Shown piece after piece: positions 28,849 to 63,799 of a stretch of DNA of 64,000 nt. A program made the position numbers and the translations under genes. The notes below the pieces were generated by a model. That model worked only from the letters and a program-made list of their open reading frames with translations. It did not search any database and was not told where the DNA came from. Positions within the stretch are counted from its first letter, which is position 1. Each line of letters starts with the position of its first letter. This stretch comes from Candidatus Falkowbacteria bacterium (GTDB lineage Bacteria; Patescibacteriota; Patescibacteriia; Patescibacteriales; UBA12465): NCBI GenBank assembly GCA_026396805.1, contig JAPLVZ010000012.1:8127-72126 (forward strand). The letters run 5' to 3'.

Positions 28849-29793
28849 TTACTTTTTTAATCTTTTTTGATTATACTTCGCCAATTCTAATCTAACTTTC
28901 TCCTCCATATCGTCACGAGACACGGCGCCGGCGTTATTTAATACTTTTTCCTTATTAAAGATTAGAAACTCGTTCAATTCATTAACCCAATCTCTCATAT
29001 ACATTAATCTTTCTTTAACGCTTTGCAGTTCGGCAAAAGACAAGAATTGCTCTACCAGTAAATTCAGTCTCTTAAGCTCCAATTCTTCCAGATAATTTTT
29101 AGCGATTTCCGCCTGTTCGCGAGTAATAATTTCCCCTGGCCAATTAGTTAAACCGAGGTTTTCCTTAGAGCTGTCTATCCGACTGTTAACTATCTCCGCG
29201 TCCGTCAGTCCGCTGATGGCATAATGGAATTTATTCTGCACCATCGCAAAAAATTTCTGGGCGTAATCGGTTTTAGGGCTATAATCAACGCTAAGGGCAA
29301 AAATGTCTCTGACTTTTTGATAGAAATTAGCCTCCGAGGTTCTTATCTTTCGGATTCGCTCTTTCAATTCCTGAAAGTATGATTTGGCGACCTTACCGCC
29401 GGCTAATCGCTCATCGTCCATCACGAACCACTTGATAATATACTCTTTTAGCTTTTGAGTCGCCCAGATGCGGAATTGCGTGCCGCGGAGGGAATTAATC
29501 CGATATCCGACCGAGATAATCGCGTCTAGGTTATATAAATTTACGGGTCTTTTCACCTCCTTATTTCCTTCTTTTTGAACTATCAAGTATTCCTTGATAG
29601 TTTGGTTTTCGCTAAGTTCAGCCTCATTAAACACATTTTTTAAATGTAGATTAATATTAGCGACGCCGCAATTGAATAACTCTGCCATTTGAACCTGACT
29701 TAACCAAACAGTCTCATTTTCAAGCTTAACTTCCAGTTTCATCTTCCCGTCTTCCGTGCTGTAAATAATGATTTGATTGTTTTTGTCATTCAT
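28849..29793 (-). CDS. RhuM-family protein (full length)
   Basis: 314 aa. The family-typical blocks WLSQVQMAELF, YNLDAIISVGYRINSLRGTQFRIWATQKL and DDERLAGG are present. ggaggcgga (SD) lies upstream of the ATG. Confidence 0.85.
   Translation of the reverse strand: MNDKNNQIIIYSTEDGKMKLEVKLENETVWLSQVQMAELFNCGVANINLHLKNVFNEAELSENQTIKEYLIVQKEGNKEVKRPVNLYNLDAIISVGYRINSLRGTQFRIWATQKLKEYIIKWFVMDDERLAGGKVAKSYFQELKERIRKIRTSEANFYQKVRDIFALSVDYSPKTDYAQKFFAMVQNKFHYAISGLTDAEIVNSRIDSSKENLGLTNWPGEIITREQAEIAKNYLEELELKRLNLLVEQFLSFAELQSVKERLMYMRDWVNELNEFLIFNKEKVLNNAGAVSRDDMEEKVRLELAKYNQKRLKK
29578..29602. repeat. Intragenic hairpin in RhuM copy 1: aactatcaag (5-nt loop) cttgatagtt
   Basis: Perfect 10-bp arms. 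The frame was checked against the ORF, and it encodes TIKEYLIV. Confidence 0.9.
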
Positions 29794-29943
29794 AAGATTT
29801 GCTCCGCCTCCGCTTATTGGCGGCCACGCGGATTAAAATTAATTATTATATTATTCAGCTTAGCAAAACAGCGATAAAGCCAAGTTAAATAAAAAATAAA
29901 GGATTTTTTTATTTGACGCCGGAGACGGAAGTGAAGTGGTCAC

Positions 29944-29968
29944 AAACCGTGACAATTTGTCACGGTTT
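29944..29968. repeat. Hairpin E (Bro-type): aaaccgtgacaa t ttgtcacggttt
   Basis: Perfect 12-bp arms. In one frame it reads QTVTICHGF, which parallels QLSTICRQL of the Bro-N-like genes. Confidence 0.85.
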
Positions 29969-29985
29969 CGTTAAGGAAGTGAGTC

Positions 29986-30002
29986 TGTCACAAAATGTGA
30001 CA
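29986..30002. repeat. Hairpin C (Bro-type): tgtcaca aaa tgtgaca
   Basis: Perfect 7-bp arms. Relative to hairpin D, two arm positions changed on both sides and pairing is kept (cg/cg becomes ac/gt). Confidence 0.8.
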
Positions 30003-30044
30003 AACTGGAGATGTTGGCTCAAGACGGGAAAATGCGTGAAACTT

Positions 30045-30074
30045 ATAAAAAAGACGGCCAGAGCCGTCTTTTTG
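30045..30074 (+). terminator. Rho-independent terminator inside R2
   Basis: aaaaaagacggc / gccgtcttttt perfect stem followed by a T-run. The G-T pair of R1 is an A-T pair here. Confidence 0.7.
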
Positions 30075-30174
30075 AATAGGGGGAAAGGGAACGCTATTAC
30101 CGTCTTTTAGAAACGCTTTTTATCAGTCCGATGACTCCTCTCCACGCTTAGTTTATATTCATCTATTCTCTTTA

Positions 30175-30372
30175 CAAAATGTGTTTAATGAGGCTGAGCT
30201 TAGCGAAAACCGAACTATTCGGAAATTCCGAATAACTGCCGCTGACGGAAAAACATATGATACTAATCTTTATAATCTTGACGTAATTATTTCCGTGGGT
30301 TACCGAGTTAACTCTCTCCGTGGCACTCAATTCCGTATTTAGGCAACCCAGAAGCTAAAAGAATAAATAATA
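30175..30372 (+). pseudogene. RhuM relic (internal fragment with two nonsense codons)
   Basis: Translates QNVFNEAELSENRTIRKFRITAADGKTYDTNLYNLDVIISVGYRVNSLRGTQFRI*ATQKLKE*IIK. TGG became TAG at 30340-30342 and TAT became TAA at 30364-30366, relative to the intact copy. Confidence 0.75.
30216..30234. repeat. Hairpin in the RhuM relic: tattcgga aat tccgaata
   Basis: Perfect 8-bp arms at the same codon position as in the other RhuM copies. It encodes IRKFRI. Confidence 0.85.
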
Positions 30373-30446
30373 AAATTTTATAGAACTTATCCAATTGTCG
30401 CGACACTGTCACGACAATTAAGCTAGTCACATTATGTTGAGTTAAT
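30373..30446 (+). pseudogene. DUF1016/YhcG relic fused in frame to the RhuM relic
   Basis: Reads FYRTYPIVATLSRQLS*SHYVELIEL, compared with FYRAYPIVQTVSAQLSWSHYVELIEL in the intact gene 500 bp downstream. Confidence 0.7.
30392..30420. repeat. Hairpin in the DUF1016 relic: caattgtcgcgaca c tgtcacgacaatta
   Basis: 12 of 14 arm positions pair. Three arm bases differ from the intact copy on each side, and two of the three pairs are restored. Confidence 0.8.
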
Positions 30447-30447
30447 T

Positions 30448-30482
30448 GAGCTCCTTTGTGAAGAGAGAGGGGGCTCTTTTTT
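30448..30482 (+). terminator. Rho-independent terminator
   Basis: gagctcc (30448-30454) pairs with ggggctc (30470-30476), followed by T6. Confidence 0.6.
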
Positions 30483-30551
30483 GTATGGAAAAGCAGTTTG
30501 TCCGATGTTTTCACGTCAGAAAAAGTCTTTATCTTTTCTTCATATCCGGTT

Positions 30552-30560
30552 TGGTATAAT
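30552..30560 (+). promoter_or_regulatory. Extended -10 element (tggtataat) upstream of the DUF1016 gene
   Basis: TGnTATAAT lies 30 nt upstream of the ATG at 30590. No clear -35 was seen. Confidence 0.35.
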
Positions 30561-30589
30561 AGGGTGATTATTATTAATCATTTAAATTT

Positions 30590-31585
30590 ATGAAAAAAGT
30601 AAAAATCAGCGGAATTAATAAAAGCCTGGCAAATCCAAGCGATTATGGGAATCTATTACATGAGTTAAAAGGAATTATTATTAAAGGACAAAACAAGGCC
30701 TATAAAGCCATAGATAATATTAAAGTCCAGACGTATTGGCAGATAGGCGAACGGATAGTTAGGGAGGAATTAAAAAATAAAGATAGGGCTGAATATGAAA
30801 AGTATTTAATAGAGAATCTGGCCGTAGATCTAAATATTGGCAAACGCGTTTTATATGAAATAGTTAAATTTTATAGAGCTTATCCAATTGTGCAGACAGT
30901 GTCTGCACAATTGAGCTGGTCTCATTATGTTGAGTTAATTGAACTAAGTGATAATAAAGAACGTCAATTTTACGAAAGTAAGATAGTAGCTAACTCCTGG
31001 TCTATCCGGGAACTTAAAGAGCAGATTAAAAATCGTCTCTATCAGAAAACCGATGACAAAGAAAAGGAAAAAATGTTAAAAACCAAGCTTCCGGCTGTAG
31101 TCGACCTGCAAAAAATATTCAAGCCCGATTACGATTTTAATTTTTTAGAAATAGCGCCCAGCCATCAAGAAAAAGAGCTGGAAGATAAAATCATTTCCAA
31201 TATCGAATATTTCCTCAAGGAATTAGGTAATGATTTTATGTTTCTGGGTCGACAAGTACCCATATTAATCGATAATGAGAAGCATTATATCGATTTAGTC
31301 TTGTATCATCGCGGCATTCCTTGTGTTATTCTAGTCGATCTTAAGGCTGATAAACTAGATAGCCGCGATATCGGTCAAATGAATAAATATATTGGCTATT
31401 ATCGCCATAATAGACAGTATGTTTACGAAAACGACACTATTGGCCTTATTATCTGTAAAGAACTGGGTCATGAAGAAGTAATCTATGCTTTAGACGGTTT
31501 AGAGGAAAAGATATTTGTTTCTCTATATAAAACAAAACTGCCAAGCGAAGAGAGAATTAAACGAGCGGTGAGAGGGATAAATTAG
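30590..31585 (+). CDS. DUF1016/YhcG-family PD-(D/E)XK nuclease-like protein
   Basis: 331 aa. The N-terminal block is IVQTVSAQLSWSHYVELI. The C-terminal core is YIDLVLYH...VILVDLKADKL (D...DxK). Confidence 0.8.
   Translation: MKKVKISGINKSLANPSDYGNLLHELKGIIIKGQNKAYKAIDNIKVQTYWQIGERIVREELKNKDRAEYEKYLIENLAVDLNIGKRVLYEIVKFYRAYPIVQTVSAQLSWSHYVELIELSDNKERQFYESKIVANSWSIRELKEQIKNRLYQKTDDKEKEKMLKTKLPAVVDLQKIFKPDYDFNFLEIAPSHQEKELEDKIISNIEYFLKELGNDFMFLGRQVPILIDNEKHYIDLVLYHRGIPCVILVDLKADKLDSRDIGQMNKYIGYYRHNRQYVYENDTIGLIICKELGHEEVIYALDGLEEKIFVSLYKTKLPSEERIKRAVRGIN
30885..30913. repeat. Intragenic hairpin in the DUF1016 gene: caattgtgcagaca g tgtctgcacaattg
   Basis: Perfect 14-bp arms. The frame was checked, and it encodes PIVQTVSAQL. 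Confidence 0.9.
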
Positions 31586-31724
31586 CAGAATTTCCCTAAT
31601 CCGCTCTTCCGCAAACCCCTTAAATGAGGCATTCTTTTTTATTTGACTAAGCTTAACAAAAGTGATTTAATATATACAGATAATCGCCCAATAAAACAGT
31701 TGAAAAAGAACTGTTTATTTAAAT

Positions 31725-32686
31725 ATGAGAGAAAAACCGATAATTTCAATAGTGATTCCAATCTATAACGAAGCGGAGAACATTCCGAGATTTTTTAGGT
31801 CCTTGGCGCAAGTTTTGTCCGGTCTGGAAGAAAAATACGAATGGGAAATAATATTTATTGACGACGGCAGTTGTGATTCTTCGGCTGAAGAATTGCGTAA
31901 GCTTAACGACGGCCGGATCCAGGTTTTGGAATTTTCCCGTAATTTCGGGAAGGAGGCGGCGCTAAGCGCCGGCCTTAACCAGGCAAGAGGCGAAGCGGCT
32001 CTAATGATTGACGCGGATTTTCAGCATCCCTTGGAGTTAATTCCGGAGTTTATCGCCAAGTGGGAAGCGGGCGCGGAAGTCGTTATCGGTATTAGAAAGA
32101 GGAATAAGAAGGCCGGTCTGATTAAGAACGCCGGTTCTTTTATTTTTTATCGGATTATTCGCCGTATTTCAACCGTTGATATTATACCGAACGAAACGGA
32201 TTTTCGTCTAGTCGGGCGGGAAGTCATTGACGCGTTTAATCGTCTCGGCGAGTCCAAGCGGATGACTAGAGCCCTGATAGACTGGTTGGGTTTTAGACGC
32301 GATTACCTTTATTTTGAAGCGCCGGAGCGGACTAACGGTCGCGCCGGTTATAATTTTTCTAGCGGTTAGCGCTTAATAGCTTTGTTTCTCTTAGTCTTAT
32401 TCCCCTAAAACTGGTGGGATATCTGGGCATTTTCATAATACTGACAATCGGTCCTTTCGGGCTTTGTGTTATGCTAGGTAAATATGTTTTTGATTGGACA
32501 TATGCCGTCAGTTTTTCCGGTCCGGCTCAGCTCGCCCTTCTGATAGCGTTTCTTATCGGTATTGTTTTATGCTCACTCGGCTTAGTGGCTTTATATATTG
32601 CCCATATTCATAATGAAGTATTAGGCCGGCCGCTTTATATCATTCGGAGAGAAAGTAATAAAATGAATACGCATGATCAAATTTAG
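31725..32686 (+). pseudogene. GtrB/DPM1-like polyprenol-phosphate GT2 glycosyltransferase, split by a frameshift near 32355-32370
   Basis: ORF 31725-32369 carries the GT2 domain (IVIPIYNEAENI, IDADFQHP) and stops at TAG 32367-32369. A different frame then continues RLALNSFVSLSLIPLKLVGYLGIF... into ORF 32414-32686. That is the amphipathic and TM tail normally contiguous in this family. Confidence 0.7.
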
Positions 32687-33674
32687 TTTTATCATTCCGG
32701 TTAAGGCGATTAATGATTATATCCGTGAGGCCGTACCGAAGGTTTTGGAGATTAATCGGGACGATTATGAAATAATTATTTATCCGGATAAAATTGATTC
32801 CGATTTTTTCGCTTTAAAAACAAAACAAATAGCCACTGGTCATGTCGGACCGGCGGCCAAAAGAAGTTTAGCAATCAAGGATGCGCAGGGAGAAATATTA
32901 ATCTTTATTGATGATGACGCTTATCCGGAGAATAATTTTTTAGAAGTTTTGGAAAGTAATTTTAACGATATAAACATTAAAGCGGTTGGCGGACCGGCAA
33001 TTACTCCTAAGAATGATAGTTTCTGGCAAAAGGTCAGCGGCGCGGTTTTTTTAAGTCCGCTAGCCGGAGGCAATCCGGAAAGATATATGCCGGTCGGGAA
33101 AAAACGGCCGGTAAACGATTGGCCGAGCGTTAATTTCTCCATCAGAAAAAATGTTTTTACGGAGCTTAACGGTTTTGCCAGCGAATTTTGGCCGGGAGAG
33201 GACACTAAACTATGTTTGGATTTGATTAAAAAATATCCGAACGGATTAATTTATGATCCGGCGCTAATCGCCTATCATCATCGTCGCGCCGGCCTGGCCA
33301 AGCATTTGAAGCAAATCTGCGGTTATGGCCTCCACCGCGGATTTTTCGCCAAGAAATATCCGGAAACGTCTGGCAAGGTAACTTTTTGCAAGTTAAACTT
33401 TTTCTATTTTATTCCCAGCCTATTTTTATTGTTCGTTATCAGCGGCGGGGTAGCCAGCTTTTTTAACAAGATAGTTTTAGAACTATATGTCTTAGGTTGG
33501 ATAATTTACCTAATAGCCTTAATCAAGGCGATTTTTGACATTAGTCGTTACGAAAAGAATCTTCCGGTCGCCTTAAACGCCGTTTATTATATTTTCTTGA
33601 CTCACTTGGTCTACGGTTATAATTTTTTGAAAGGATTTATTTTTATTAGGAATTTGAAAAGTAAATTACGATAA
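32673..33674 (+). CDS. GT2 glycosyltransferase with a C-terminal membrane domain
   Basis: FSFIIPVKAIN, IFIDDDAYP and an EDTKL motif, with TM helices at the C-terminus. Confidence 0.8.
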   Translation: MIKFSFIIPVKAINDYIREAVPKVLEINRDDYEIIIYPDKIDSDFFALKTKQIATGHVGPAAKRSLAIKDAQGEILIFIDDDAYPENNFLEVLESNFNDINIKAVGGPAITPKNDSFWQKVSGAVFLSPLAGGNPERYMPVGKKRPVNDWPSVNFSIRKNVFTELNGFASEFWPGEDTKLCLDLIKKYPNGLIYDPALIAYHHRRAGLAKHLKQICGYGLHRGFFAKKYPETSGKVTFCKLNFFYFIPSLFLLFVISGGVASFFNKIVLELYVLGWIIYLIALIKAIFDISRYEKNLPVALNAVYYIFLTHLVYGYNFLKGFIFIRNLKSKLR

Positions 33675-33678
33675 TATT

Positions 33679-36621
33679 ATGAAAATATTCATCTCATATC
33701 CGCCGCTGATTTCGGAGAAAGGAATTCCGCTTTTGAGCCAGAATCGCCAATTCCAGTGGTTCAACAGCCCGACCTATATCTATCCGGTTATCCCGGCTTA
33801 TTTGGCGACCCTACTGAAAGAGGCGGGCCATGAAGTCGTCTGGGACGACGGCATCGCTGAGGGTTTGCGCTATGGAGACTGGGAGAAGCGCCTATTGTCG
33901 GCGCATCCGGATTTGATTTTTTTTGAAACCAAGACTCCAGTCGTCAAACGGCATTGGGCGATTATCAATGATCTGAAAACTAAATTAGCGGCTAAGATCG
34001 TCCTGTTGGGCGACCATGTCACGGCCGAGCCGGAAGAAAGCTTGCGTTATTCCAAAGTTGACTATGTCCTGGCCGGGGGCGACTATGATTTCGGCGGCTT
34101 GAACCTGGTTCGGTTTTTAGCCGGCGAAGCGGAACTGGAGCCGGGCTGGCACTGGCGGACGGGTGGCGAGTGGCAGGCGACGAGCGACAATCAGGAGATT
34201 AACTGGCGGGACGGAGAATTCAAGGCTTTGAAAGCCGCATCTAGCGGCGAGAGGCAGAATTATGCCGCCCAGAATCTAGATACCTTGCCCATGATTGACC
34301 GCGAGCTGACCAATTGGCGGCTTTATGCCTATAAGAATGGCAATTTTAAATACATGCCCGGCGCCTATCTGATGAACGCCCGCGATTGTTGGTGGGGGAG
34401 GTGTAGTTTCTGCTTGACCGGTGAAGCGCAAGTTTTAACCATCAAAGGCGCTAAAAATATAGCGGATATAGAAAAAGGAGATCGAGTTTTAACCCATTTG
34501 GGAAATTATAAAAAAGTTAATGAAACTTTAAAAAGAAATTATGAGGGCGAACTGATCGAGATAAAGACTAATTGTCTTATGCCTTTTAAAATAACGCCGA
34601 ATCATCAAGTGCTTAACTTGCCCTTGAAAGATTTAAGCCGTTGTTTAAAAGTTGGCCAGGCCGGCTATCTTTGTAAAAGCAATAATGATTTTTCTAAGCG
34701 CTTAGATTGCGCTAATTGCGAGCTCCCTAAACCCTATTTAAATTATAAGCCACAATATATAGAAGCGGGACAGATCAGTAAGGGCGATTATCTAGCCGTA
34801 CCGATAAACAGAGAAATTATTAAAACTGCCAAGTTAGATTTGAAAAAAATATTAAATCTACAACCAACAATCATCAACACTTGGAAAAAAATTGCCGATT
34901 CGCTTATCAAAGAGATTTTAACTCTTAACCAGCAAGGTAAAAGCGAAAGAGATATTTCAGTTCTTCTTAAAATTGACCGAGAAACCGTTCATCGCTATAT
35001 ATCTTTAGAAAAAGCCGAGCAATTAATCAATAAAAGTAATCCGCTTAAATATAAAGGTGGAAAAATAAGTTTTGAGGGAGGAAAAAATTGGCTGCCGGCG
35101 GACATAGTTTTAAAAGATGATGTTTATAGATTATTTGGTTATTACTTGGCGGAGGGCTGCGTTTCTAAACTAAAGAATCGGCCGAATTCCCTGGTTATCA
35201 GCCTTACTTTTAATCAGAAAGAGCGGGAATATATTGCCGATGTTAAAAAAATATTTGAAGATATTTTTAAGGTTGAGGTTAATATTAATCAGAATAAAGT
35301 TAACCATACAACCCAAATTACAGTCGGAAATTCTTTGCTGGCCAAAGTATTTAAGAATTTATTCGGCGATAATTGTTATAATAAAAGTCTGCCGGAATTT
35401 ATTATGAAGGCCGAGAGAGTAAAACAAGTAGAACTACTGCGCGGAATTTTTCGGGGTGATGCTCATTATCGACAGAGAGGAACTAGAGCGGAATATATTT
35501 TAAGTTCGGCCTCGGACAGCCTGTCGTCCCAATTAGTCATGCTTCTTTTAAGATGTTCGGCTATACCGAGCGTGAGGCGGACTAAGATAAGGGGGAAAAT
35601 GACTAAAGAACAAAATATTATTACTCTTTCCAGTATTGATATTATTAATTTGTTTGCCGAGAAAAAAAGGGTGGAAAAAGTTGAATCGCTTTATAAAAAA
35701 GGCTTTATTATCGGAAATTATGCTTATTTACCCGTAACGCGACTAAAAAAAGAGCAATATAAAGGAGCGGTCTATAATCTATCGGTTGATAAAGACCATA
35801 GCTACACGGCTAATTTTGTCGGCGTCAGTAATTGTTCCTGGACCACGCTTTTCCCCGGGCAGACTTTCCGCGTCCGCTCGGCCCGTTTGGCCTTGGATGA
35901 AGTCGGCCAGCTGATTGATTTGGGCGTCAAGGAAATCATGGAAGATTCCGGCACCTTGCCGGTCGGCCCTTGGCTGGAAGAATTTTGTAACGGCATGATA
36001 GAGCGCGGCTACAATAAAAAGATCGTCATGAGTTGTAATATGCGCATCAGCGGAATTAAGGATCCCGAAATCTGGAAGCTAATGAAGCGTGCCGGTTTTC
36101 GCTTTATCTTATTCGGTTTAGAATCGGCTAATCAAAAAACCTTAGACGCGATTAATAAAAATCTGAAAGTTGAAGAAATTGAACCGGGGCTAAGAATGTG
36201 CAAGGAGGCCGGTTTAGAGCCTCATATTACCGCCATGATCGGCTATCCTTGGGAAACTTATGAAGACGCTAAAAAAACCGTGGAATTAGCGAAGGATTTA
36301 TTTAAAAAGAACTGCGTTAATACCCTTCAGGGCACGGTTTTAATTCCATATCCGGGCACGCCGCTTTATGCGAAATGCTGGGCGGAAGGTTTATTGAATT
36401 TTACCGATTATGATCGTTTTGATCAAAGGGAGCAGGTTATGAAATGCCCCTTAACGACTGAACAAGTCAAGGAACTCACCCAGGGGCTATATAAGGCCTT
36501 TATGAGCCCTAAATTCGTCATTAATAAGCTAAAATCAATCAGAAGCTGGAGTGATATTAAATTCTTATGGATGGCCGGGATGAAGGTTCTAGGGCATTTG
36601 ACTGATTTCAGCAAGAAATAA
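33679..36621 (+). CDS. Class B (cobalamin-binding-domain) radical SAM enzyme, interrupted by an intein
   Basis: The extein is ~506 aa. It has an N-terminal B12-binding-like Rossmann region (DLIFFETKTP...VLLGDHVT) and a cluster motif DCWWGRCSF|C split by the intein. The C-terminal half is a radical SAM TIM barrel (FGLESANQKTL). Confidence 0.85.
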   Translation: MKIFISYPPLISEKGIPLLSQNRQFQWFNSPTYIYPVIPAYLATLLKEAGHEVVWDDGIAEGLRYGDWEKRLLSAHPDLIFFETKTPVVKRHWAIINDLKTKLAAKIVLLGDHVTAEPEESLRYSKVDYVLAGGDYDFGGLNLVRFLAGEAELEPGWHWRTGGEWQATSDNQEINWRDGEFKALKAASSGERQNYAAQNLDTLPMIDRELTNWRLYAYKNGNFKYMPGAYLMNARDCWWGRCSFCLTGEAQVLTIKGAKNIADIEKGDRVLTHLGNYKKVNETLKRNYEGELIEIKTNCLMPFKITPNHQVLNLPLKDLSRCLKVGQAGYLCKSNNDFSKRLDCANCELPKPYLNYKPQYIEAGQISKGDYLAVPINREIIKTAKLDLKKILNLQPTIINTWKKIADSLIKEILTLNQQGKSERDISVLLKIDRETVHRYISLEKAEQLINKSNPLKYKGGKISFEGGKNWLPADIVLKDDVYRLFGYYLAEGCVSKLKNRPNSLVISLTFNQKEREYIADVKKIFEDIFKVEVNINQNKVNHTTQITVGNSLLAKVFKNLFGDNCYNKSLPEFIMKAERVKQVELLRGIFRGDAHYRQRGTRAEYILSSASDSLSSQLVMLLLRCSAIPSVRRTKIRGKMTKEQNIITLSSIDIINLFAEKKRVEKVESLYKKGFIIGNYAYLPVTRLKKEQYKGAVYNLSVDKDHSYTANFVGVSNCSWTTLFPGQTFRVRSARLALDEVGQLIDLGVKEIMEDSGTLPVGPWLEEFCNGMIERGYNKKIVMSCNMRISGIKDPEIWKLMKRAGFRFILFGLESANQKTLDAINKNLKVEEIEPGLRMCKEAGLEPHITAMIGYPWETYEDAKKTVELAKDLFKKNCVNTLQGTVLIPYPGTPLYAKCWAEGLLNFTDYDRFDQREQVMKCPLTTEQVKELTQGLYKAFMSPKFVINKLKSIRSWSDIKFLWMAGMKVLGHLTDFSKK
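34411..35832 (+). mobile_element. Radical SAM intein (474 aa) with HTH and LAGLIDADG endonuclease domains
   Basis: CLTGEAQVLT at the N-terminus, block B TPNHQVLN, LAGLIDADG-like LFGYYLAEGCV and LLRGIFRGDAH, and an HTH-like GKSERDISVLLKIDRETVHRYI. It ends VYNLSVDKDHSYTANFVGVSN followed by Cys+1. Both junctions are in frame with 33679. Confidence 0.87.
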
Positions 36622-36806
36622 TTGGCTAATTCTAGTTAACATTTTGCTGTTTGGTAAATCTGTAATATAATTATTACATAAATGCGTAAATTTGTAATAG
36701 TTTCATTTGACATTTGAAAGACAATAATATATACTAAAATTGATGTTTAAACATCAAAAATATATACTAAAATTGCTGTTTAATATTTTCTAATTTTAAT
36801 GATTTT

Positions 36807-37940
36807 ATGGAAAATAAGCAAATAAAACGTGATATTGAAAAAAATATCAGAGATTGGTTATTTAAAGGTAAAATAATCATTCTTTATGGCGCGCGCCAAG
36901 TTGGTAAAACAACCTTGGCTAAAAAGCTTTTAAGAGAGCATGGTCGTCCGACAGATTATTTTAATTGCGAAATTTCCTCCATCAGATCGGCCTTGGAAAA
37001 AGAAGATCCGACAGCCTTAAAAAAGTTTTTAGGCGACGGTCGTTTGATTGTTTTAGATGAAGCGCAAAAAGTAAGTAATATCGGATTAATTTTAAAACTC
37101 CTGTTAGATACCTATCCGAATATACAGATTGTCGCCACCGGTTCATCTTCTTTTGATTTGGCCAATCAAGTTAATGAGCCCTTGACCGGCCGCGCCTTAG
37201 AATTCACGCTTTATCCTTTTTCATTGCGTGAACTTAAAAATTTCTATAAAAATTATGAGCTTGAAGGGCAATTGGAAAATTTATTGATTTATGGATTATA
37301 TCCGGAAATAGTAAAAAGCGATTCGACCAACGCTCGCCAGCTTTTAGATAATTTAAGCAATAAATATTTGTATCAAGATATTTTAATTTTTAATCGGATT
37401 AAAAAGTCCGGTTTGATTGTTAAATTACTGCAGCTCTTAGCTTTGCAGATCGGGAACGAGGTATCGATTAATGAATTGGCCGTTAATCTGCAATGCAGTC
37501 GCGATACGGTTGTTAATTATTTGGATATTTTGGAAAAAGCGTTTATTATTTTCCGTCTGCGCGCCTATAGCCGGAATCAGCGTAAGGAAATCGTCAAAAA
37601 ACAAAAAATTTATTTTGTTGATTTGGGAATCAGGAATAGTTTAATCAGCCGTTATAATGAACTGGCGGTTCGTGATGATGTCGGCGCTTTATGGGAAAAT
37701 TTTTGTATTATTGAGCGTTTGAAAAAAATTCAGGCCGATAATTTATATTGTCAAAAATATTTTTGGCGCGCAATCAGTCAAAAGAAAGTTGATTATGTAG
37801 AAGAATACAACGATCGTCTGGACGGTTATGAATTTAAATGGGGTAAAGGCAAGGCGTCGGCGCCTAAAGAATTTTTAGCTTATAAAAACAGTCGCGTTAA
37901 TTTGATAAATCGTGATAATTACCAAGAATTTTTAACATAG
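36807..37940 (+). CDS. AAA-type ATPase with a DUF4143-like C-terminal domain
   Basis: GARQVGKTTLA (Walker A) and VLDEAQ (Walker B). The architecture is typical of the AAA_14/DUF4143 family. Confidence 0.8.
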   Translation: MENKQIKRDIEKNIRDWLFKGKIIILYGARQVGKTTLAKKLLREHGRPTDYFNCEISSIRSALEKEDPTALKKFLGDGRLIVLDEAQKVSNIGLILKLLLDTYPNIQIVATGSSSFDLANQVNEPLTGRALEFTLYPFSLRELKNFYKNYELEGQLENLLIYGLYPEIVKSDSTNARQLLDNLSNKYLYQDILIFNRIKKSGLIVKLLQLLALQIGNEVSINELAVNLQCSRDTVVNYLDILEKAFIIFRLRAYSRNQRKEIVKKQKIYFVDLGIRNSLISRYNELAVRDDVGALWENFCIIERLKKIQADNLYCQKYFWRAISQKKVDYVEEYNDRLDGYEFKWGKGKASAPKEFLAYKNSRVNLINRDNYQEFLT

Positions 37941-38070
37941 ACCTGTCGCCAATGCTAGACCGGATTTGCAAAAGATGAGCGTAGAGCAGAGAATTAAGGA
38001 GCATAAAAATGTCCCTGAAAATGTCCCTGAAACTACCCAGAAAATTATTGGGAGCTAATAAAATAGTATT

Positions 38071-38562
38071 ATGGAAAACCTAAATTCACAAATTGTAATA
38101 TATAAAGATCAAAATGGACATATCAAAATCGATGTTCGTTTTGATGGTGATACTGTCTGGCTGACCCAAGATCTTATATCAATTTTATTTAATAAAGCAA
38201 AATCTACTATAAACGAACATATAAAAAATATATATGCTGAAAGTGAGTTGTCAGAGCTAAGTTCAATGAGAAAATTCGGAAATTCCGAATTTTCTACAAA
38301 ACCTACTAATTATTACAACTTAGACCTAATTATCGCTGTTGGCTATCGGGTAAAATCACCCCAAGGCACTATTTTCCGCAAATGGGCCACCGAGAGGCTC
38401 TCGGAATATATTGTTAAGGGTTTTGTATTAGATGATGAGAGGTTAAAAAACCCGGATTTGCCGTTTGATTATTTTGAGGAATTAACCCGTCGCCTTGCGG
38501 ATATTCGCACAGAAATCTTGATGATATTAAATTTTTGTGGCGGGCGGGAACGAAGGTATTAG
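38071..38562 (+). pseudogene. RhuM-family gene truncated after ~147 codons
   Basis: The N-terminal 147 aa are RhuM-like (WLTQDLISILF, YNLDLIIAVGYRVKSPQGTIFRKWATERL, DDERLKNP). Homology stops at ...ADIRTE (~38513), and the remaining reading is out-of-frame radical SAM tail. Confidence 0.75.
38269..38295. repeat. Intragenic hairpin in RhuM copy 3: agaaaattcgga aat tccgaattttct
   Basis: Perfect 12-bp arms. The frame was checked, and it encodes RKFGNSEFS. Confidence 0.9.
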
Positions 38563-54337: not shown

Positions 54338-54502
54338 ATTAGAACTGGGGGTGGGATTTTGTGAGGAGGAAGAAAGATTTGATAGAGGTTGAGGAGGTTA
54401 GTGTTATTGAAGGTTAGGGGGTGGCGCTATGTGTCCGCTTGAGGGTCTGAGATGGTGCTGGGCGATTGTTTACGCAAGATAGGACTAAATTACATCAAAT
54501 TT

Positions 54503-55243
54503 ATGACTAATACTTACAAAATTAAAGATAAACTATTAATAATTGGCGACGGTCGTTATAGTAATGAAGAAATCATGGCATTATACAGAGAAATAGAAAA
54601 TCACATTTTTCGTTCGGAATTTAATGAAGATTTAAATGCTTGTCTTGATGATTGCTTACATAAGATTAAAGCAACCTGGTATCATCTTTCTACTATTAAA
54701 CAAGAGGTTGAAGAAATAATGACGCACCCGAAACATTATTTGCAGCAACAAGTTTTTCAGTCTTATCCAAAAATAGAATTTCAAGATAATCGTCTTATTT
54801 ATGAGATAGAAGCTTTTTTATTTCAGGTAAAAAGTAATTTGGATATTATCGTACAAGTCCTAACTTTCTTTTATCCTAATTTAAAAAGTGAAAATGCCGA
54901 TAGGCCTAATGGTTTTGATGGTAAAAAGAGGCTAGCTGGTTACAAAACAATTGAAAAGTTAACGACAGCTGGAGAGGCTAGATTAGCTGATTATTTTAAA
55001 GGGGAGGTAAGTGATTGGATTCAAGAAATGGTTGATTTGCGTAATACTGTCACTCACAAAACTCAACTGGAAAACTACCAGTCATTTTTAATAACGGAAA
55101 TGTTATCTAACGAGCTTGAAATAAAAACACCACTAATGCCTTCGGGGCAAAAAGTGGAAGTTTATTGTCAATTAGTTTTTGATAAATTATTAAATTTTTA
55201 TCGGACAGTGTTTGTAGATATTATTGGCGAATATAAAAAATAG
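54503..55243 (+). CDS. Hypothetical protein with a HEPN-like Rx4H motif
   Basis: ~246 aa, predicted mostly helical. MVDLRNTVTHK contains R-N-x3-H, as in Abi/HEPN families. The ATG at 54503 is preferred. Confidence 0.4.
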   Translation: MTNTYKIKDKLLIIGDGRYSNEEIMALYREIENHIFRSEFNEDLNACLDDCLHKIKATWYHLSTIKQEVEEIMTHPKHYLQQQVFQSYPKIEFQDNRLIYEIEAFLFQVKSNLDIIVQVLTFFYPNLKSENADRPNGFDGKKRLAGYKTIEKLTTAGEARLADYFKGEVSDWIQEMVDLRNTVTHKTQLENYQSFLITEMLSNELEIKTPLMPSGQKVEVYCQLVFDKLLNFYRTVFVDIIGEYKK

Positions 55244-55395
55244 TAAATTTAGAAGAATAAAGTGAAAAATTATAAAATAGAAGAAATAGAAACAGATCCT
55301 TCGCTCCGCTCAACTCGCCTCGCTTCGCTGGCGAAGCGGGAATGGCAAAGAAAGATTTTATAAAAACTTTATAAATATTTTATTTAATATTAGCC

Positions 55396-55424
55396 TTGAT
55401 AATGATTATTAAACCTGCTATAAT
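55396..55424 (+). promoter_or_regulatory. Sigma-70-type promoter (TTGATA, 17-nt spacer, TATAAT) for the Bro-N-like genes
   Basis: -35 at 55396-55401 and -10 at 55419-55424. The upstream 30 nt is 29/30 identical to the module at 62206-62235. Confidence 0.6.
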
Positions 55425-55453
55425 CAGGTGATAATAATTAATTATCTAAATTT

Positions 55454-56161
55454 ATGGCTAAAAATGACAAACAAAATGAAATTAATAAAATAGTCTTGTT
55501 TAAAGGGCAAAAGATTAGGCGAATTATTTTTAATGATGAATGGTGGTTTTCTGTTGTTGATGTTTGCGGAGTGTTGGTGGAAAGTACAAACGCTAGAGAT
55601 TATTGGTATAGAGTAAAAAGTAGAGTTGAAGATGAAGAAAAACTTCAACTGTCGACAATTTGTCGACAGTTGAAGTTAGAGTCGCCTGACGGCAAAATGC
55701 GTGAAACCGATTGCGCAAATACCGAAGGATTATTCCGTATTATTCAGTCTATCCCTTCGCCGAAAGCTGAACCGTTTAAACGTTGGTTGGCTAAGGTCGG
55801 CTATGAGCGAGTTCAAGAAATTCAAGATCCAGAATTAGCGACTAAAAGAACTAGAGAACTCTATAAGCTAAAGGGTTATAGCGATTCCTGGATTGAAAAG
55901 CGGCTGCGCGGTATCGCTATTCGCGAAGAATTAACTGATGAATGGAAAAATAGAGGGGCGAGAGAAAAAAAGGATTATGAAATTTTAACGGCGGAAATAT
56001 CAAAAGCGACTTTTGGATTAACCCCGGTTCAGTACAAAAAAGTTAAGAGTCTGGGCAAAGAGAATTTGCGCGATCATATGGAAGATATTGAAAAACAATC
56101 TGACGCTAAAGTTGCCAGTTCGAATAATTTTTTAGGGCGGAAAAATCACCAGCTAGAATGA
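55454..56161 (+). CDS. Bro-N / DinD-like protein (copy A, with an internal deletion near the C-terminus)
   Basis: 235 aa with WWFSVVDVCGVL, DGKMRETDCANTEGLFRIIQSIPSPKAEPFKRWLAKVG. Relative to copy B it lacks ~45 aa between NLRDHM and the C-terminal tail. Confidence 0.8.
   Translation: MAKNDKQNEINKIVLFKGQKIRRIIFNDEWWFSVVDVCGVLVESTNARDYWYRVKSRVEDEEKLQLSTICRQLKLESPDGKMRETDCANTEGLFRIIQSIPSPKAEPFKRWLAKVGYERVQEIQDPELATKRTRELYKLKGYSDSWIEKRLRGIAIREELTDEWKNRGAREKKDYEILTAEISKATFGLTPVQYKKVKSLGKENLRDHMEDIEKQSDAKVASSNNFLGRKNHQLE
55641..55677. repeat. Intragenic hairpin in Bro-N-like copy A: aacttcaactgtcgacaa t ttgtcgacagttgaagtt
   Basis: Perfect 18-bp arms. The frame was checked, and it encodes KLQLSTICRQLKL. 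Confidence 0.92.
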
Positions 56162-56203
56162 AGAGGAAATTGTTTAAGCGATAATAATTAATTATCTGAA
56201 TTT

Positions 56204-57046
56204 ATGGCTAAAAATTTTAACAAAAACGTCGATAAGAACATCGCCTTATTTGGAAATGATCCGGTCCGTAGAATATGGGATGAAAAGGAAGAACGATGGT
56301 ATTTTAGCGTCGTAGACGTGGTACGAGTTCTCGCGGATAGTTCTCGGCCCGACGCTTACTGGGTCGCGATGAAAGCTCGGGTAAAAAGTGATGATGGAAT
56401 TCAGTTATCTACAATTTGTAGGCAACTGAAGCTGGAGGCTTCTGATGGTAAAAGATATCAGACTGATTGCGCTAATACCGAAGGCGTACTTCGTATCATT
56501 CAATCAATCCCTTCCCCTAAAGCCGAACCCTTTAAGCGCTGGCTGGCTAAGGTCGGACAGGAACGGATACGGGAGATAAACGATCCGGAGATTGCTTTAA
56601 ACCGTTCTCGGGAGCTTTGGCAAAAGCATGGCCGAAGCGAGTCGTGGATTCAACGAAGGATGATGGGGCAAGAAACTAGAAATAAACTGACTGATTATTG
56701 GAGCGAACACGATGTTAAAAAGGGTGATGAGTTTGCGATTCTGACTAATATTATCCACGAAGAATGGAGTGATTTATCGGTGAAAAAGCATAAAGATTTG
56801 AAAGGTTTGAAAACGCAGAATTTACGCGACCACATGAGCGAAGAAGAATTAATTTTCTCCGCCTTAGCCGAAATGTCTACTAGAAAAATCGCGGAAACGG
56901 AACAGACTGCCGGTCTGGAGGCTAATAAAATTCCTGCCAAGAAAGGCGGCAAAATCGCGAAAGATGCGAGAACTGCTTTAGAAGAGAAAACCGGCCAAAG
57001 CGTGATTACCGGTCGGAACTTTTTACCGAAGTTAAAAAATAAATAA
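56204..57046 (+). CDS. Bro-N / DinD-like protein (copy B)
   Basis: 280 aa with the same motif set as copy A. The 5' leader ataataattaattatctgaatttatg is nearly identical to that of copy A. Confidence 0.8.
   Translation: MAKNFNKNVDKNIALFGNDPVRRIWDEKEERWYFSVVDVVRVLADSSRPDAYWVAMKARVKSDDGIQLSTICRQLKLEASDGKRYQTDCANTEGVLRIIQSIPSPKAEPFKRWLAKVGQERIREINDPEIALNRSRELWQKHGRSESWIQRRMMGQETRNKLTDYWSEHDVKKGDEFAILTNIIHEEWSDLSVKKHKDLKGLKTQNLRDHMSEEELIFSALAEMSTRKIAETEQTAGLEANKIPAKKGGKIAKDARTALEEKTGQSVITGRNFLPKLKNK
56400..56430. repeat. Intragenic hairpin in Bro-N-like copy B: ttcagttatctacaa t ttgtaggcaactgaa
   Basis: Of 15 arm positions, 13 are Watson-Crick, one is G-U and one is a mismatch. It sits at the same codon position as in copy A, with different outer arm sequence. 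Confidence 0.85.
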
Positions 57047-57076
57047 AGAAAATAATTTATAAATTAATCACGCCGA

Positions 57077-58756: not shown

Positions 58757-60026
58757 ACAATCATTGAGCGATAAATTTATCCGGGGAACGTTCTGGCTGA
58801 CGGCCGTCAGTTTTATCAGTTCGGCTTTTAATTATTTTGTCCATCCGATTTTGACCCGCCATCTCACCATTGCCGAATATGGCGATTTTCAAGCGCTATT
58901 ATCTTTCGCTACGATTATCGGTATTATCGGCGCCGTCGTTGCTACCGTGTTGACGAAAGAAATATCGCTTCTTAACACCGCGCGCCCGGAAGAAATTAAT
59001 GCTCTGCGCCGGCGCGCCTCTTCTCGATTATTATTCGTCGGCCTAGCTGTCCTGGCTTTAATTATTATTTTTTCCGGTCCTTTAAATAATCTATTTAAAA
59101 TTAGTGAACCCGCGGTTTTGGTTATTTCTTCTTTAAGTCTGCTTTATATTTTTTCATTAGTTGTTAATCGCGCGACTTTAACCGGCGTGCAGGCTTTTTC
59201 CGCTTTATCTTTAAGCAATTTACTTGATGCCGTCGGCCGTTTAGCGCTGGTTATACTTTTAGTGGTAATTTTTCCTTGGGGACTTTTGGGCGCCGCCTAT
59301 TCTTTGAGTTTTGCTAGCCTGGCCGCTTTTCTAATCAGTTTCTGGCAGATTAAAAAATTAAAATTGCCAGCGGCCGTCGCCGGTTTTAAGCCATCACTCC
59401 GAACTATGTGGCGTTACGCTTTACTTGTTTTATGGTTCACGGCTCTTTATCAGTTTTTCTATAATTTCGACATGCTTCTAGTCAAATCATTTTTCAGTCC
59501 GGAAGAAGCCGGGCTGTACGGGGCGCTGCTCACTATCGGTCGGATTATTTATTTTGTGGGCGGCTCTATACCATTAGTGATGTTTCCGGTTTTAGCCGGC
59601 CTGCAAGGCGATAAGAGTTCACGGCGCTATAAAGTTTTAGGGAAGTCATTATTATTAATGTCCGGCCTGACTATTCCCGCTTATCTCATAATCTCTCTCT
59701 GGCCGGAATTTATTATTAGAATCGTTGTCGGAGTTAAGTATTTAAGCATCGCGCCATATTTGCCGGGTTTCGCTTTGGTTATGCTGTTTTTAACTTTATT
59801 AATGGTTTTGTCTCAATACTTTTTAGCTTTGGCCAAACGTCGCGGCTTAGTCGTTTTAACCTTAGCCGCGTTAGGGGAAATTATTTTGTTAATGTTCTGG
59901 CATGATAATATTTTTGAAATTATTCGCTCGCTCGGTTTGGTTTTCGGCGGGGCGTCACTGGCGCTGATTATTCTGCTTGTTTCTGATTTCCGGCGCGCCC
60001 GGGCATTAGAGCGAAAATATGAATAA
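58740..60026 (+). CDS. MOP-superfamily polysaccharide/oligosaccharide flippase (Wzx-like)
   Basis: 428 aa with ~12 TM helices. The N-terminus SDKFIRGTFWLTAVSFISSAFNYF is typical of polysaccharide biosynthesis flippases. Confidence 0.7.
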   Translation: MKLNFRQSLSDKFIRGTFWLTAVSFISSAFNYFVHPILTRHLTIAEYGDFQALLSFATIIGIIGAVVATVLTKEISLLNTARPEEINALRRRASSRLLFVGLAVLALIIIFSGPLNNLFKISEPAVLVISSLSLLYIFSLVVNRATLTGVQAFSALSLSNLLDAVGRLALVILLVVIFPWGLLGAAYSLSFASLAAFLISFWQIKKLKLPAAVAGFKPSLRTMWRYALLVLWFTALYQFFYNFDMLLVKSFFSPEEAGLYGALLTIGRIIYFVGGSIPLVMFPVLAGLQGDKSSRRYKVLGKSLLLMSGLTIPAYLIISLWPEFIIRIVVGVKYLSIAPYLPGFALVMLFLTLLMVLSQYFLALAKRRGLVVLTLAALGEIILLMFWHDNIFEIIRSLGLVFGGASLALIILLVSDFRRARALERKYE

Positions 60027-62048: not shown

Positions 62049-62070
62049 TTGATTTGATAGTTTTGGAAAA

Positions 62071-62256: not shown

Positions 62257-62262
62257 GTGGGG

Positions 62263-62796
62263 ATGAAAAATAATTTTAAAAAAAATTTTGCTTATATTGA
62301 CGGCGCCAATCTTCATAAAGGAATAAAAGATTTTGGTTGGCGGCTGGATTATAAGCGTTTTCGCGTTTGGCTGAAAGAAAAATACTCAGTTGAATGCGCC
62401 TATTTATTTATCGGATTAATCCCAAAATATAAAGATTTGTATGCTTTTTTGCAAAAATCCGGGTTTACTCTTATTTTTAAAGAAACAACTTATGATGGTA
62501 ATGGCAGGGTGAAAGGAAATTGTGATGCCGATTTGGTTTTAGCGGCGGTACGTGATACTTTTGAAAATTCTTATTTTAAATCAGTTTTAGTTTCTAGCGA
62601 TGGCGATTACGCGGGTTTAGTGAAATTTCTTTTAGAAAAGAATAAGTTTAAAATTTTACTTTCACCGGATGAACATTGTTCGGTTCTATTAAAACGTACC
62701 AACGCCCCGATTTCTTATTTGAGTGATAAGAGAAATATCTTAGAAAATATTGATCGTCTTTATAAAAAAGCCCCCGATGCGGACAAAACCGCATAA
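62263..62796 (+). CDS. NYN (LabA-like PIN-fold) domain protein, copy 1
   Basis: FAYIDGANLHKG, NCDADLVL and VLVSSDGDYAGLV motifs. The ATG at 62263 is preferred to the GTG at 62257. Confidence 0.8.
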   Translation: MKNNFKKNFAYIDGANLHKGIKDFGWRLDYKRFRVWLKEKYSVECAYLFIGLIPKYKDLYAFLQKSGFTLIFKETTYDGNGRVKGNCDADLVLAAVRDTFENSYFKSVLVSSDGDYAGLVKFLLEKNKFKILLSPDEHCSVLLKRTNAPISYLSDKRNILENIDRLYKKAPDADKTA

Positions 62797-62898: not shown

Positions 62899-62927
62899 TC
62901 AGTTGTCCGAAAAAACCGGACAACTGA
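62899..62927. repeat. Intergenic hairpin G (Bro-type): tcagttgtccg aaaaaac cggacaactga
   Basis: Perfect 11-bp arms. It is related to hairpin D (tgtccga...tcggaca), but the outer arm bases differ and still pair. It abuts the leader of the RhuM fragment. Confidence 0.85.
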
Positions 62928-62949: not shown

Positions 62950-63231
62950 ATGGACAAGAAAAACAATCAAATCATTATTTACAGTACGGAAGATGGGAAG
63001 ATGAAGCTTGAGGTTAAGCTTGAAAATGAGACCGTTTGGTTAAGTCAAAAACAGATGGCGGAGCTGTTTGACTGTAGTATCCGGAACATCAGCTTACATT
63101 TACAAAATGTGTTTAATGAGGCTGAACTTAGCGAAAATTCAGTTATGAAGGATTACTTCATAACTGCCTCTGACAAAAAGAATTACCTGATTAAATACTA
63201 CAATTTAGACGCGATTATCTCGGTCGGCTAA
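62950..63231 (+). pseudogene. RhuM N-terminal fragment (93 codons)
   Basis: The first ~62 aa are nearly identical to the intact copy at 28849-29793. It stops at ...YNLDAIISVG*, whereas the intact copy continues YRINS. Confidence 0.75.
63140..63166. repeat. Intragenic hairpin in RhuM copy 4: cagttatgaag gatta cttcataactg
   Basis: Perfect 11-bp arms. The frame was checked, and it encodes SVMKDYFITA. Confidence 0.9.
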
Positions 63232-63265: not shown

Positions 63266-63799
63266 ATGATTAATAATAAGCAAATAAAAAATTTGGCGTT
63301 CATAGATGGACAAAATTTATACATGGGTACCGCCAAAAGACAAGTTGATCCATGGAGAATAGATCTTGATCGTTTTCGCGTATATTTGGAGAAAAAATAT
63401 AATACCAGTAAAGCTTATTATTTTTTAGGATATGTCCAAAGAATGAATCAAGAATTATATGAGGAAATTCAAAACGCTGGTTTTGTTTTAGTATTTCGCG
63501 AGCATAATCCGGCGATGATTGGAAAGAAAAAGGGGAATGTAGACTCGGATATTATTTTTCAGATAATGAAAAAAATGTATAAAAAAGAAGATTTTGACAA
63601 AATTATTCTTGTCTCCGGAGATGGTGACTATAAATTGCTGGTCGATTTTTTAATTGAAGAAAACAGATTTAAAAAGATTTTATTTCCTGATAGAAGTAAA
63701 AGATCATCCCTTTACAAAAGTTTGTCAAATAAATTTTTTGCTTATTTGGACGATACCGATATTAAAAATAAGATAAAAAAAAAGAAAAGGGTGCCTTAG
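63266..63799 (+). CDS. NYN (LabA-like PIN-fold) domain protein, copy 2
   Basis: LAFIDGQNLYMG, NVDSDIIF and ILVSGDGDYKLLV motifs. It is a paralogue of 62263-62796. Confidence 0.8.
   Translation: MINNKQIKNLAFIDGQNLYMGTAKRQVDPWRIDLDRFRVYLEKKYNTSKAYYFLGYVQRMNQELYEEIQNAGFVLVFREHNPAMIGKKKGNVDSDIIFQIMKKMYKKEDFDKIILVSGDGDYKLLVDFLIEENRFKKILFPDRSKRSSLYKSLSNKFFAYLDDTDIKNKIKKKKRVP

Follow-up and report, generated by a model that had tools for sequence, protein, structure and literature searches.

A hypervariable palindrome inside rhuM genes as the probable binding site of the winged-helix domain encoded around it

In phage lambda, iterons with dyad symmetry (ori-lambda) lie inside the gene of O, the protein that binds them, and in the pT181-family initiators RepC, RepD and RepE a conserved and a divergent inverted repeat (IR-III) are found in the rep coding sequence, a few amino acids co-varying with the divergent repeat and giving private specificities. 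In immunity repressors and in the C-protein/C-box groups of restriction-modification (R-M) systems, dimeric helix-turn-helix proteins read palindromic operators, and recognition helix and operator diverge together, with no cross-talk between co-resident mobile elements. The present study deals with a palindrome that lies inside genes of the RhuM family (PF13310) in a 64,000-nucleotide stretch of DNA from a Candidatus Falkowbacteria bacterium (contig JAPLVZ010000012.1, positions 8,127 to 72,126; hereafter the window, with positions counted from its first letter). Judging from sequence comparison, this palindrome is probably the duplex-DNA target of the N-terminal winged-helix domain of RhuM itself, helix and site having diverged in concert into dozens of private pairs. 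Its nearest precedents, by analogy, are the initiators with sites inside their own genes, lambda O and pT181 RepC, and the co-diversification of immunity groups.

Ori-lambda is a replication origin composed of four tandem iterons, whereas rhuM contains a single palindrome and shows no sign of replication functions; moreover, the RhuM site, unlike that of lambda, lies within the segment coding for the DNA-binding domain, and rhuM is an accessory gene of chromosomes, R-M operons or prophages. The pT181 initiators perform HUH-type nicking on an extruded hairpin, whereas PF13310 is the sole domain found in RhuM and the determinant of specificity appears to be the recognition helix of a winged helix. 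An origin or nick site of the lambda O, pT181 Rep or phiX174 A type was rejected on the grounds of that single domain, of the presence of one site per gene and of the genomic places of rhuM, in R-M operons, beside tRNA-Sec, or between int and the repressor of satellite phages. The operators of repressors and C-proteins are intergenic and promoter-proximal, in contrast with the RhuM site, which is unique in its locus, is far more symmetric and is situated about 200 nt inside the open reading frame (ORF). SECIS and other structured elements inside ORFs resemble the RhuM site in that an embedded nucleic-acid element constrains the peptide, but they are RNA stem-loops that have conserved loops or bulges and tolerate G·U, whereas the RhuM site has no wobble bias and is coupled to a helix that would read DNA. 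In the full-text literature searched, whose coverage is incomplete, no description of such an element was found for RhuM (PDC-S05 in PADLOC), DUF1016 or Bro-N genes.

The full-length copy 1 of rhuM in the window (28849..29793, minus strand) codes for a 314-aa protein, which matches the PADLOC candidate PDC-S05 with an E-value of 1e-127 and shows 100% identity to a protein of a Candidatus Falkowbacteria metagenome-assembled genome. Its palindrome (29578..29602, minus strand) has 10-bp arms and a 5-nt centre and reads AACTATCAAG/TATTC/CTTGATAGTT on the forward strand and AACTATCAAG-GAATA-CTTGATAGTT on the gene strand, where it codes for TIKEYLIV, the predicted first strand of the wing. For comparison, 178 RhuM loci were retrieved from genomes, metagenomes and viral contigs, and individual tests use 70–155 genes. 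We define the site as eight codons (x1–x8) starting four residues past a conserved "EL", with the third base of x4 as the symmetry centre, and d as the distance in bases from that centre. The typical site, a 10-bp-arm inverted repeat with a 5-nt centre, is found at the same place in RhuM genes of many phyla. Among 70 unique sequences, the positions from d=3 to d=12 are Watson-Crick pairs in 54–70 (77–100%, and ≥90% except at d=8), while d=1–2 are loose (49–71% complementary) and the positions at d≥13 are unpaired. Several pair types occur in one column, for example C-G in 35 and T-A in 33 sequences at d=6, and C-G in 33, T-A in 25 and G-C in 10 at d=7. Synonymous positions, on the other hand, can be nearly invariant across phyla of very different base composition, as are d=12 (A-T in 69 of 70) and d=9 (T-A in 60 of 70).

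The sequence-only reading of the window, which had called attention to the palindromes, held that a nucleic-acid constraint dictates the peptide encoded there and proposed that homologues from other genomes be examined for covariation. The claim is borne out by 74 homologues that span Patescibacteria, Bacillota, Bacteroidota, Pseudomonadota, Spirochaetota, Nanoarchaeota and others. From their ungapped 135-nt alignment RNAalifold recovered a single helix of 11 pairs, all with compensatory changes. In the 10-pair stem, 97.7% of the cells are Watson-Crick paired, compared with 72.0% in column shuffles and 15–47% in controls with slid partners, and the covariation score of 0.797 (0.267 when shuffled) was reached by none of 500 shuffles; complementarity at this position is thus not peculiar to the window. 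Nor do codon-preserving shuffles produce comparable palindromes: when synonymous codons were resampled with the peptide kept, 6.25 of 10 pairs formed versus the observed 9.49, and the observed score was reached in 134 of 10,300 resamples. The four pairs composed only of codon third positions fell from the observed 3.83 to 1.25 of 4, which means that synonymous third positions pair together. Amino acids at opposite places of the site are related by reverse-complement logic (K-L/F, E-S, Q-C/W, R-R, I-I, T-V, C-H/Q, G-P and A-A). The peptide of the eight-codon stretch is therefore fixed by the nucleic-acid constraint, not by the protein.

In spite of its symmetry, the segment is hypervariable. 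Proteins that are 75–91% identical overall bear wholly different arms, and 36 different 6-nt cores occur among 87 distinct sites. The outer bases follow the type of wing, AACT accompanying T..V/QKEG wings and CAGTT accompanying V..T/AxDGK wings, and one divergent subfamily has a perfect palindrome whose centre is displaced by 1 nt. In 120 close homologues (71–100% identity), each site allele goes with its own sequence 15–22 codons upstream: C[GS]xAN.[SN]LH with IKEYLI, KDVRT[IV]NEH with IRKFRI, CGxNNIRFH with TQEYCV, CSxRN.SIH with MKDYFI, CSxDNISLH with T[TS]E[ED]SSV, and KDVRTISLH with IQEYWI. This pairing is independent of which of the two wing types comes after. In the same set, residues 43, 45, 48, 49 and 52 have normalised mutual information with the site allele of 0.72, 0.87, 0.68, 0.91 and 0.64, respectively, against a baseline of 0.35–0.57 for almost all variable columns and a highest value elsewhere of 0.60; the wing columns 74–86 stay at baseline although they are physically nearer the site. 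AlphaFold, run on 60 close homologues and confident in the N-terminal domain only (pLDDT 70–86), places strands at residues 7–12 and 18–23, helices at 33–39 and 44–56, and a beta-hairpin at 66–75/78–87. The domain is thus predicted to be a winged helix-turn-helix in which the palindrome codes for the first wing strand. Most of the coupled residues lie on the modelled helix 44–56 with i, i+3/4, i+7 spacing, and residue 43 is in the preceding turn; residues 43, 45, 46, 48 and 49, which co-vary with the palindrome core, thus belong to a single face of the helix. In copy 1, this turn and putative recognition helix correspond to codons 42–56 (CGVANINLHLKNVFN; 29626..29670, minus strand).

A residue-to-base map of 126 genes from many phyla further narrows the coupling. 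Residue 49 is linked with d3 (0.92) and d4 (0.95), residue 46 with d4 (0.81), residue 45 with d5–d7 (0.74–0.79) and residue 44 with d7 (0.66), and the values for residues 35–41 and 52–58 are ≤0.34, save that of residue 55 with d10/d11 (0.42), which tracks wing type. The d=3 pair joins the third base of codon x3 with that of codon x5. It is G:C in all 66 genes with L at residue 49 and in all 22 with E, A:T wherever the residue is Y (10/10), R (8/8) or V (5/5), and C:G in 15 of 19 genes with K. In five core alleles, a change of residue 49 is accompanied by a change of the d=3 pair, and three of these contrasts are purely synonymous: IRKFRI has CGG..TTC with NEH and CGA..TTT with NYH, TCKEFLQ has AAG..TTC with L and AAA..TTT with T or V, and TTEE.SV has GAG..ATC with L and GAA..ATT with V. 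The best reading of such silent positions that co-vary with residue 49 is that they point to readout of DNA rather than to contact with the peptide. The KFGNSEF subfamily, to which copy 3 of the window belongs, shares a TINEH-type helix and an identical 17-bp core, ATTCGGAAATTCCGAAT, with the IRKFRI alleles, but the core is displaced by 7 nt and a different peptide is therefore encoded. The pair of KDVRTINEH and ATCCGG-AAATT-CCGGAT is found both in Escherichia coli strain S5, whose rhuM palindrome is CATCCGG-AAATT-CCGGATAG, and in Patescibacteria. Salmonella RhuM from the orthologous selC/tRNA-Sec locus (83% DNA identity) has the helix KAKATISEH and the perfect palindrome CAGTTGTTCGG-TTTTA-CCGAACAACTG.

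We infer from these sequence patterns that RhuM actually binds the palindrome, and that it does so as a dimer. The half-site cores (d=3–8) are centred approximately 11 bp apart, which is about one helical turn, and the centre between them is less constrained and A/T-rich. In the proposed mode of binding, the site would consist of two 9–10-bp half-sites around an A/T-rich 5-bp centre, a dimer would insert one helix (44–56) into each half-site, and the two wings would cover the outer AACT/AGTT or CAGTT/AACTG bases. Since one and the same helix has to fit both half-sites, a change of specificity would appear as a "compensatory" change in both arms, and because the site overlaps eight codons, it would dictate the peptide of the first wing strand. 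The purpose of such a site would likely be self-regulation: a site inside the gene might serve as a feedback or tethering device that is independent of promoters and travels with the gene, by which a promoter-less, horizontally mobile and probably toxic defence gene could control its product, or keep it parked, at any place of insertion. A transcriptional roadblock and in-cis capture of the nascent protein are conceivable modes. Diversification, in turn, might keep paralogues and incoming copies from cross-talk, as one genome can hold several copies.

Several observations weigh against this proposal. The own half-site is not enriched within 3 kb on either side of the gene (84 matches versus 74 expected), and neither an 18-kb segment of Gordonia phage Sidious nor a Streptococcus satellite phage, complete at 10.7 kb, contained a second copy; the proposed protein therefore has a single known target. 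That target is well inside the ORF and not promoter-proximal, which makes the regulatory benefit a proposal. The AlphaFold model is poor overall, with a mean pLDDT of 51.6. Helix and site are within about 75 nt of each other, and shared descent of a small module contributes to their correlation; the controls for the coupling, namely the adjacent wing columns at baseline and the five co-switches within alleles, are informal with respect to phylogeny. Palindromes are degenerate in the divergent members from Gordonia phage Sidious and Wolbachia WO (gp8). Furthermore, the symmetry (94–98% of arm positions) exceeds that of most natural operators, and the outer pairs swap between AACT/AGTT and AGTT/AACT with almost no mixed forms. 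The near-perfect symmetry or the outer-pair swaps could reflect selection for intrastrand pairing or correction from arm to arm by template switching.

The genomic context speaks for the proposal, since at most loci there is no space for a separate rhuM promoter, and a site within the gene would give self-limitation that needs none. Of 126 loci, 104 have the upstream gene on the strand of rhuM, and in 45 the two are ≤30 nt apart; the upstream neighbour is an hsdM-type methylase in 25 of 123. In the literature searched, the sole function proposed for RhuM is that of a toxin domain of R-M loci (PMC3710099), and it is enriched beside invertible hsdS genes (PMC9881135). In E. coli and Salmonella (SPI-3), rhuM is situated directly downstream of tRNA-Sec (selC); a gene or fragment exists in 4,649 of 5,426 complete E. 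coli genomes, strain S5 having the gene (locus L184, 6996-8033) and K-12 only a 162-nt internal relic (locus L183, 7002-7163). In many Streptococcus phage-inducible islands, rhuM is found between integrase and repressor, as in satellite phage Javan67 (locus L179, 1306-2310). The slot between integrase and repressor is a typical place for defence cargo expressed in lysogeny. Neither the full-length sequence nor a profile of the N-domain gave a significant match in the PDB, the best, insignificant one being a winged helix of eIF3c.

In the window itself, the four RhuM palindromes claimed by the sequence-only reading are all present at the coordinates given there, and all four ORFs match PF13310, with bit scores of 321.5 for copy 1, 106.7 for copy 3, 50.6 for the relic and 17.2 (E 0.0032) for copy 4; the last is below the gathering cut-off of 33.7 because copy 4 ends after residue 93. 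The relic palindrome (30216..30234, plus strand), TATTCGGAA-A-TTCCGAATA, has 9-bp arms and one central base and codes for IRKFRI in an ORF (30181..30342) from which the upstream helix region is gone. Truncated copy 3 (ORF 38071..38562, 163 aa) has the recognition helix KAKSTINEH (38194-38238) and the palindrome AGAAAATTCGGAA-A-TTCCGAATTTTCT (38269..38295, plus strand) with 13-bp arms and one central base, in which the IRKFRI-type core, shifted as described above, codes for RKFGNSEFS. Truncated copy 4 (ORF 62950..63231, 93 aa) has the helix CSIRNISLH (63073-63117) and the palindrome CAGTTATGAAG-GATTA-CTTCATAACTG (63140..63166, plus strand) with 11-bp arms and a 5-nt centre, coding for VMKDYFIT. 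The idea that the palindrome occupies the same codon position in every copy holds for the others but not for copy 3, whose centre is 7 nt further downstream. The near-identity of the flanks of copies 1 and 4 was confirmed, with 46 of 47 nt matching just upstream and an identical GACGCGATTATCTCGGTC downstream; indeed, the DNA of these two copies is nearly identical save for two islands, one at the recognition helix and the other at the palindrome and wing.

The count of four was too low, as a fifth RhuM-type palindrome had been overlooked. This palindrome, TCAGTTGTCCG-AAAAAAC-CGGACAACTGA (62899..62927, plus strand), has 11-bp arms, reads (LEESF)SVVRKNRTT and sits in a decayed ORF, with the start codon of copy 4 lying 23 nt downstream; it could be either a scar or a working site in the leader of that gene. 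The window thus holds five RhuM sites with four different cores. An exhaustive scan of the whole 64 kb found only 16 perfect hairpins with arms of ≥9 bp, whereas mononucleotide shuffles give a chance expectation per 64 kb of about 1.9 for 9-bp, 0.44 for 10-bp and 0.1 for 11-bp arms, and the RhuM palindromes are, as had been argued, beyond chance.

Palindromes of a similar kind are found in two other families in the window. The Bro-N gene at 55454..56161 contains a perfect palindrome with 18-bp arms (55641..55677, plus strand), which codes for KLQLSTICRQLKL and stands just before "DGK", a place equivalent to the RhuM site; its paralogue (56204..57046) has one that pairs at 13 of 15 positions (56400..56430, plus strand). 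Both paralogues encode QLSTICRQLKL with different synonymous codons, pairing at 18/18 and 13/15 positions, respectively. Upstream of rhuM copy 1, a decayed Bro-N fragment that reads ..VTKCDKLEMLAQDGKMRET holds two palindromes on the plus strand (29944..29968, with 12-bp arms, and 29982..30006), whose perfect symmetry persists despite stop codons that break the ORF. Each of six viral Bro-N homologues has its own inverted repeat at the same place, with 6–12 paired positions per arm and ≤2 mismatches. Bro-N (PF02498) resembles RhuM in the collinear position of the palindrome, in its mostly AACTG/CAGTT-like outer bases and in a similar order of secondary structures. The similarity of the N-domains themselves is not significant (BLASTP E 0.93), and the weak hhalign match (probability 13.8%, E 0.002) is collinear with the palindrome-coded strands matched; Pfam calls no Bro-N domain in RhuM.

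In the YhcG/DUF1016 gene (30590..31585; PADLOC PDC-S02), a perfect palindrome with 14-bp arms (30885..30913, plus strand) codes for the conserved motif PIVQTVSAQL. The segment is hypervariable, with reverse-complement amino-acid logic, in 120 homologues. Six further YhcG genes, chosen for their differing site alleles and with DNA obtained by exact-protein look-ups, have 29-bp palindromes of the form CAATTGT-NNNNN-CA-N-TG-NNNNN-ACAATTG, of which four are perfect, one has a G·T beside the centre and one has 13-bp arms. The YhcG allele co-varies with residues 86, 87, 89, 90 and 93 and with residues 111, 114, 115 and 118, on two flanking helices. No YhcG relatives were found in viral contigs with a single-sequence or an alignment query. 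A signal of coupling to helices is thus apparent in the YhcG sequences, while the likeness of Bro-N consists in the palindrome and its position. On metagenome contig Ga0494705_0005514 (locus L191), a YhcG/DUF1016 gene has a RhuM gene directly after it on the same strand, and the two are adjacent in the window as well.

These genes belong to a patchwork of defence candidates among glycosyltransferase genes (28849-38562 and 54452-63799), which includes RhuM (PDC-S05), YhcG (PDC-S02), an ATPase (36807..37940; PDC-S01), the two Bro-N genes, the NYN-domain genes 62257..62796 and 63266..63799, and a weak Apea-like HEPN match (54452..55243). A/T-rich palindromes with 9-bp arms are situated at 36740-36757, just upstream of the PDC-S01-type ATPase ORF, and at 37387-37405, inside it. 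A 980-aa ORF (33679-36621) resembles a radical-SAM/B12-binding-type enzyme split by a large insert, which looks in sequence like an intein bearing a homing-endonuclease region (..CLTGEA...VSNCSW..).

Four other explanations of the RhuM palindrome have to be weighed. A hairpin of the mRNA in the coding region might act in translational pausing, in mRNA stability or processing, or in translational autorepression by the protein. RNAalifold does recover the helix with covariation at every pair, folding energies of −8 to −18 kcal/mol are predicted, z-scores lying between −2.3 and −7.1 (copy 1: −12.1 kcal/mol, z −5.5), and the site is always on the sense strand, though that is so by construction. 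The covariation, in which 10 of 10 pairs are compensatory, is, however, equally produced by symmetric protein-binding sites, since a homodimer demands matching half-sites and apparent compensatory evolution therefore arises without any pairing within a strand. RNA helices under selection tolerate G·U but not A·C. The 49 non-Watson-Crick arm positions among 87 distinct 25-mers comprise 17 G·T, 15 A·C and 17 of transversion type (binomial p = 0.86); since G·U does not significantly outnumber A·C, the arms lack the leniency towards wobble that RNA pairing would lead one to expect, even if G·U is somewhat commoner at d=8 (11 versus 6). The C·A mismatch that one allele retains within its stem, described below, likewise counts against a folded RNA. 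In addition, the stem pairs track residues of an alpha-helix, which cannot read the deep major groove of A-form RNA, the site is hypervariable among 75–90% identical genes, which is the opposite of purifying selection on a stem, and untranslated relics are still perfect palindromes. An Rfam scan of the window gave no match at the gathering threshold, and RNAalifold gave no pairing beyond the hairpin in the 135-nt alignment, where a search aimed at pairing between helix region and arms was not made. Taken together, these points make an mRNA hairpin quite improbable. Three of the candidates that had been put forward from the sequence alone, namely an internal terminator, a processing site and a ribosome pause, are not supported, given the lack of a sense-strand T tract and of wobble bias and the ties between arms and recognition-helix residues. 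In particular, the A/T-rich stems speak against an intrinsic (Rho-independent) terminator, and so does the sense strand, on which none of 139 genes has a T tract (≥5 T in the 8 nt past the stem). That such a terminator ends antisense transcripts of rhuM can hardly be credited either: a consensus scan does flag the palindromes of copy 1 and the relic in antisense orientation, where the upstream codons GAA AAY produce a terminator-like TTTTC tail, but an antisense T tract occurs in just 17 of the 139 genes, and the A/T-rich stems and the coupling to the helix speak against it.

It is also conceivable, as the sequence-only reading had suggested for an ssDNA or cruciform recombination site, that the arms pair within one DNA strand, as a hairpin or cruciform that serves as a site of recombination, nicking or sensing and whose stem is possibly bound by the RhuM winged helix. 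The near-perfect complementarity of the arms with a looser, A/T-rich centre is in line with such a structure, as are the true double compensations at the outer pairs with almost no mixed forms, the recombination of wing types exactly at the palindrome edge, the truncated genes and relics of the window that stop near the palindrome or consist of it, and the survival of perfect palindromes in decayed ORFs; nor does the coupling contradict it, because the helix could still read a B-form stem. Arms of 10–12 bp, however, extrude poorly, the YhcG and Bro-N palindromes keep complementarity right to the one base in the middle, where it is of no use to a hairpin, and six genes or more of the allele with the helix KDRKTxTEH have a C·A mismatch in the middle of the stem. 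Moreover, no recombinase or HUH nuclease is consistently nearby, and dimer binding explains the symmetry without intrastrand pairing, so that we regard a hairpin or cruciform as unlikely. An integron attC or IS200/IS605-type site was rejected separately, as the arms are perfect with no bulges and only 2 of 123 upstream neighbours are integrases; an attC-like reading of AAC...GTT was dropped because these are merely T and V codons, which are inverted in the V..T subfamily. Finally, the palindrome might be a mutational by-product without function in the DNA, with template switching at quasi-palindromes equalising the arms and diversifying selection acting on a surface made of helix and wing strand. 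Concerted multi-nucleotide changes in both arms between very close relatives would fit this idea, hypervariable surfaces are frequent in defence proteins, and the relics have stayed perfect palindromes. It leaves unexplained, though, the silent arm positions that track residue 49, the same DNA core that encodes a different peptide in a shifted frame, and the invariant synonymous bases that flank the core in all phyla, such as the d=12 pair; besides, a palindrome would have to pre-exist and be kept in three unrelated families. We consider this explanation very unlikely.

If the palindrome is indeed the site of RhuM's own winged-helix domain, RhuM-type proteins would gain a testable activity, that is, sequence-specific DNA binding with a known target. 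This would matter because few uncharacterised genes are as common in R-M operons, prophages and defence islands as RhuM and DUF1016, and it would explain the self-limitation of promoter-less genes embedded in foreign operons. The dozens of specificities would constitute a natural table of recognition-helix residues versus base pairs. It would also mean that RNA-like covariation in coding regions can be the footprint of a symmetric protein site, which matters for screens of structured RNA. A broader idea, which we put forward only tentatively and regard as possible rather than probable, is that of a "self-address" in RhuM, YhcG/DUF1016 and perhaps Bro-N: the codons of each DNA-binding domain would themselves spell out a hypervariable palindrome as the private site of that domain, and gene and protein would form an autonomous, promoter-independent unit of control or tethering. 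A toxin or nuclease might, for example, be parked on its own gene, or be shut off in cis, until infection disturbs it. If this idea is true, thousands of genes would label their own binding site, offering a recognition code and many orthogonal protein/site pairs.

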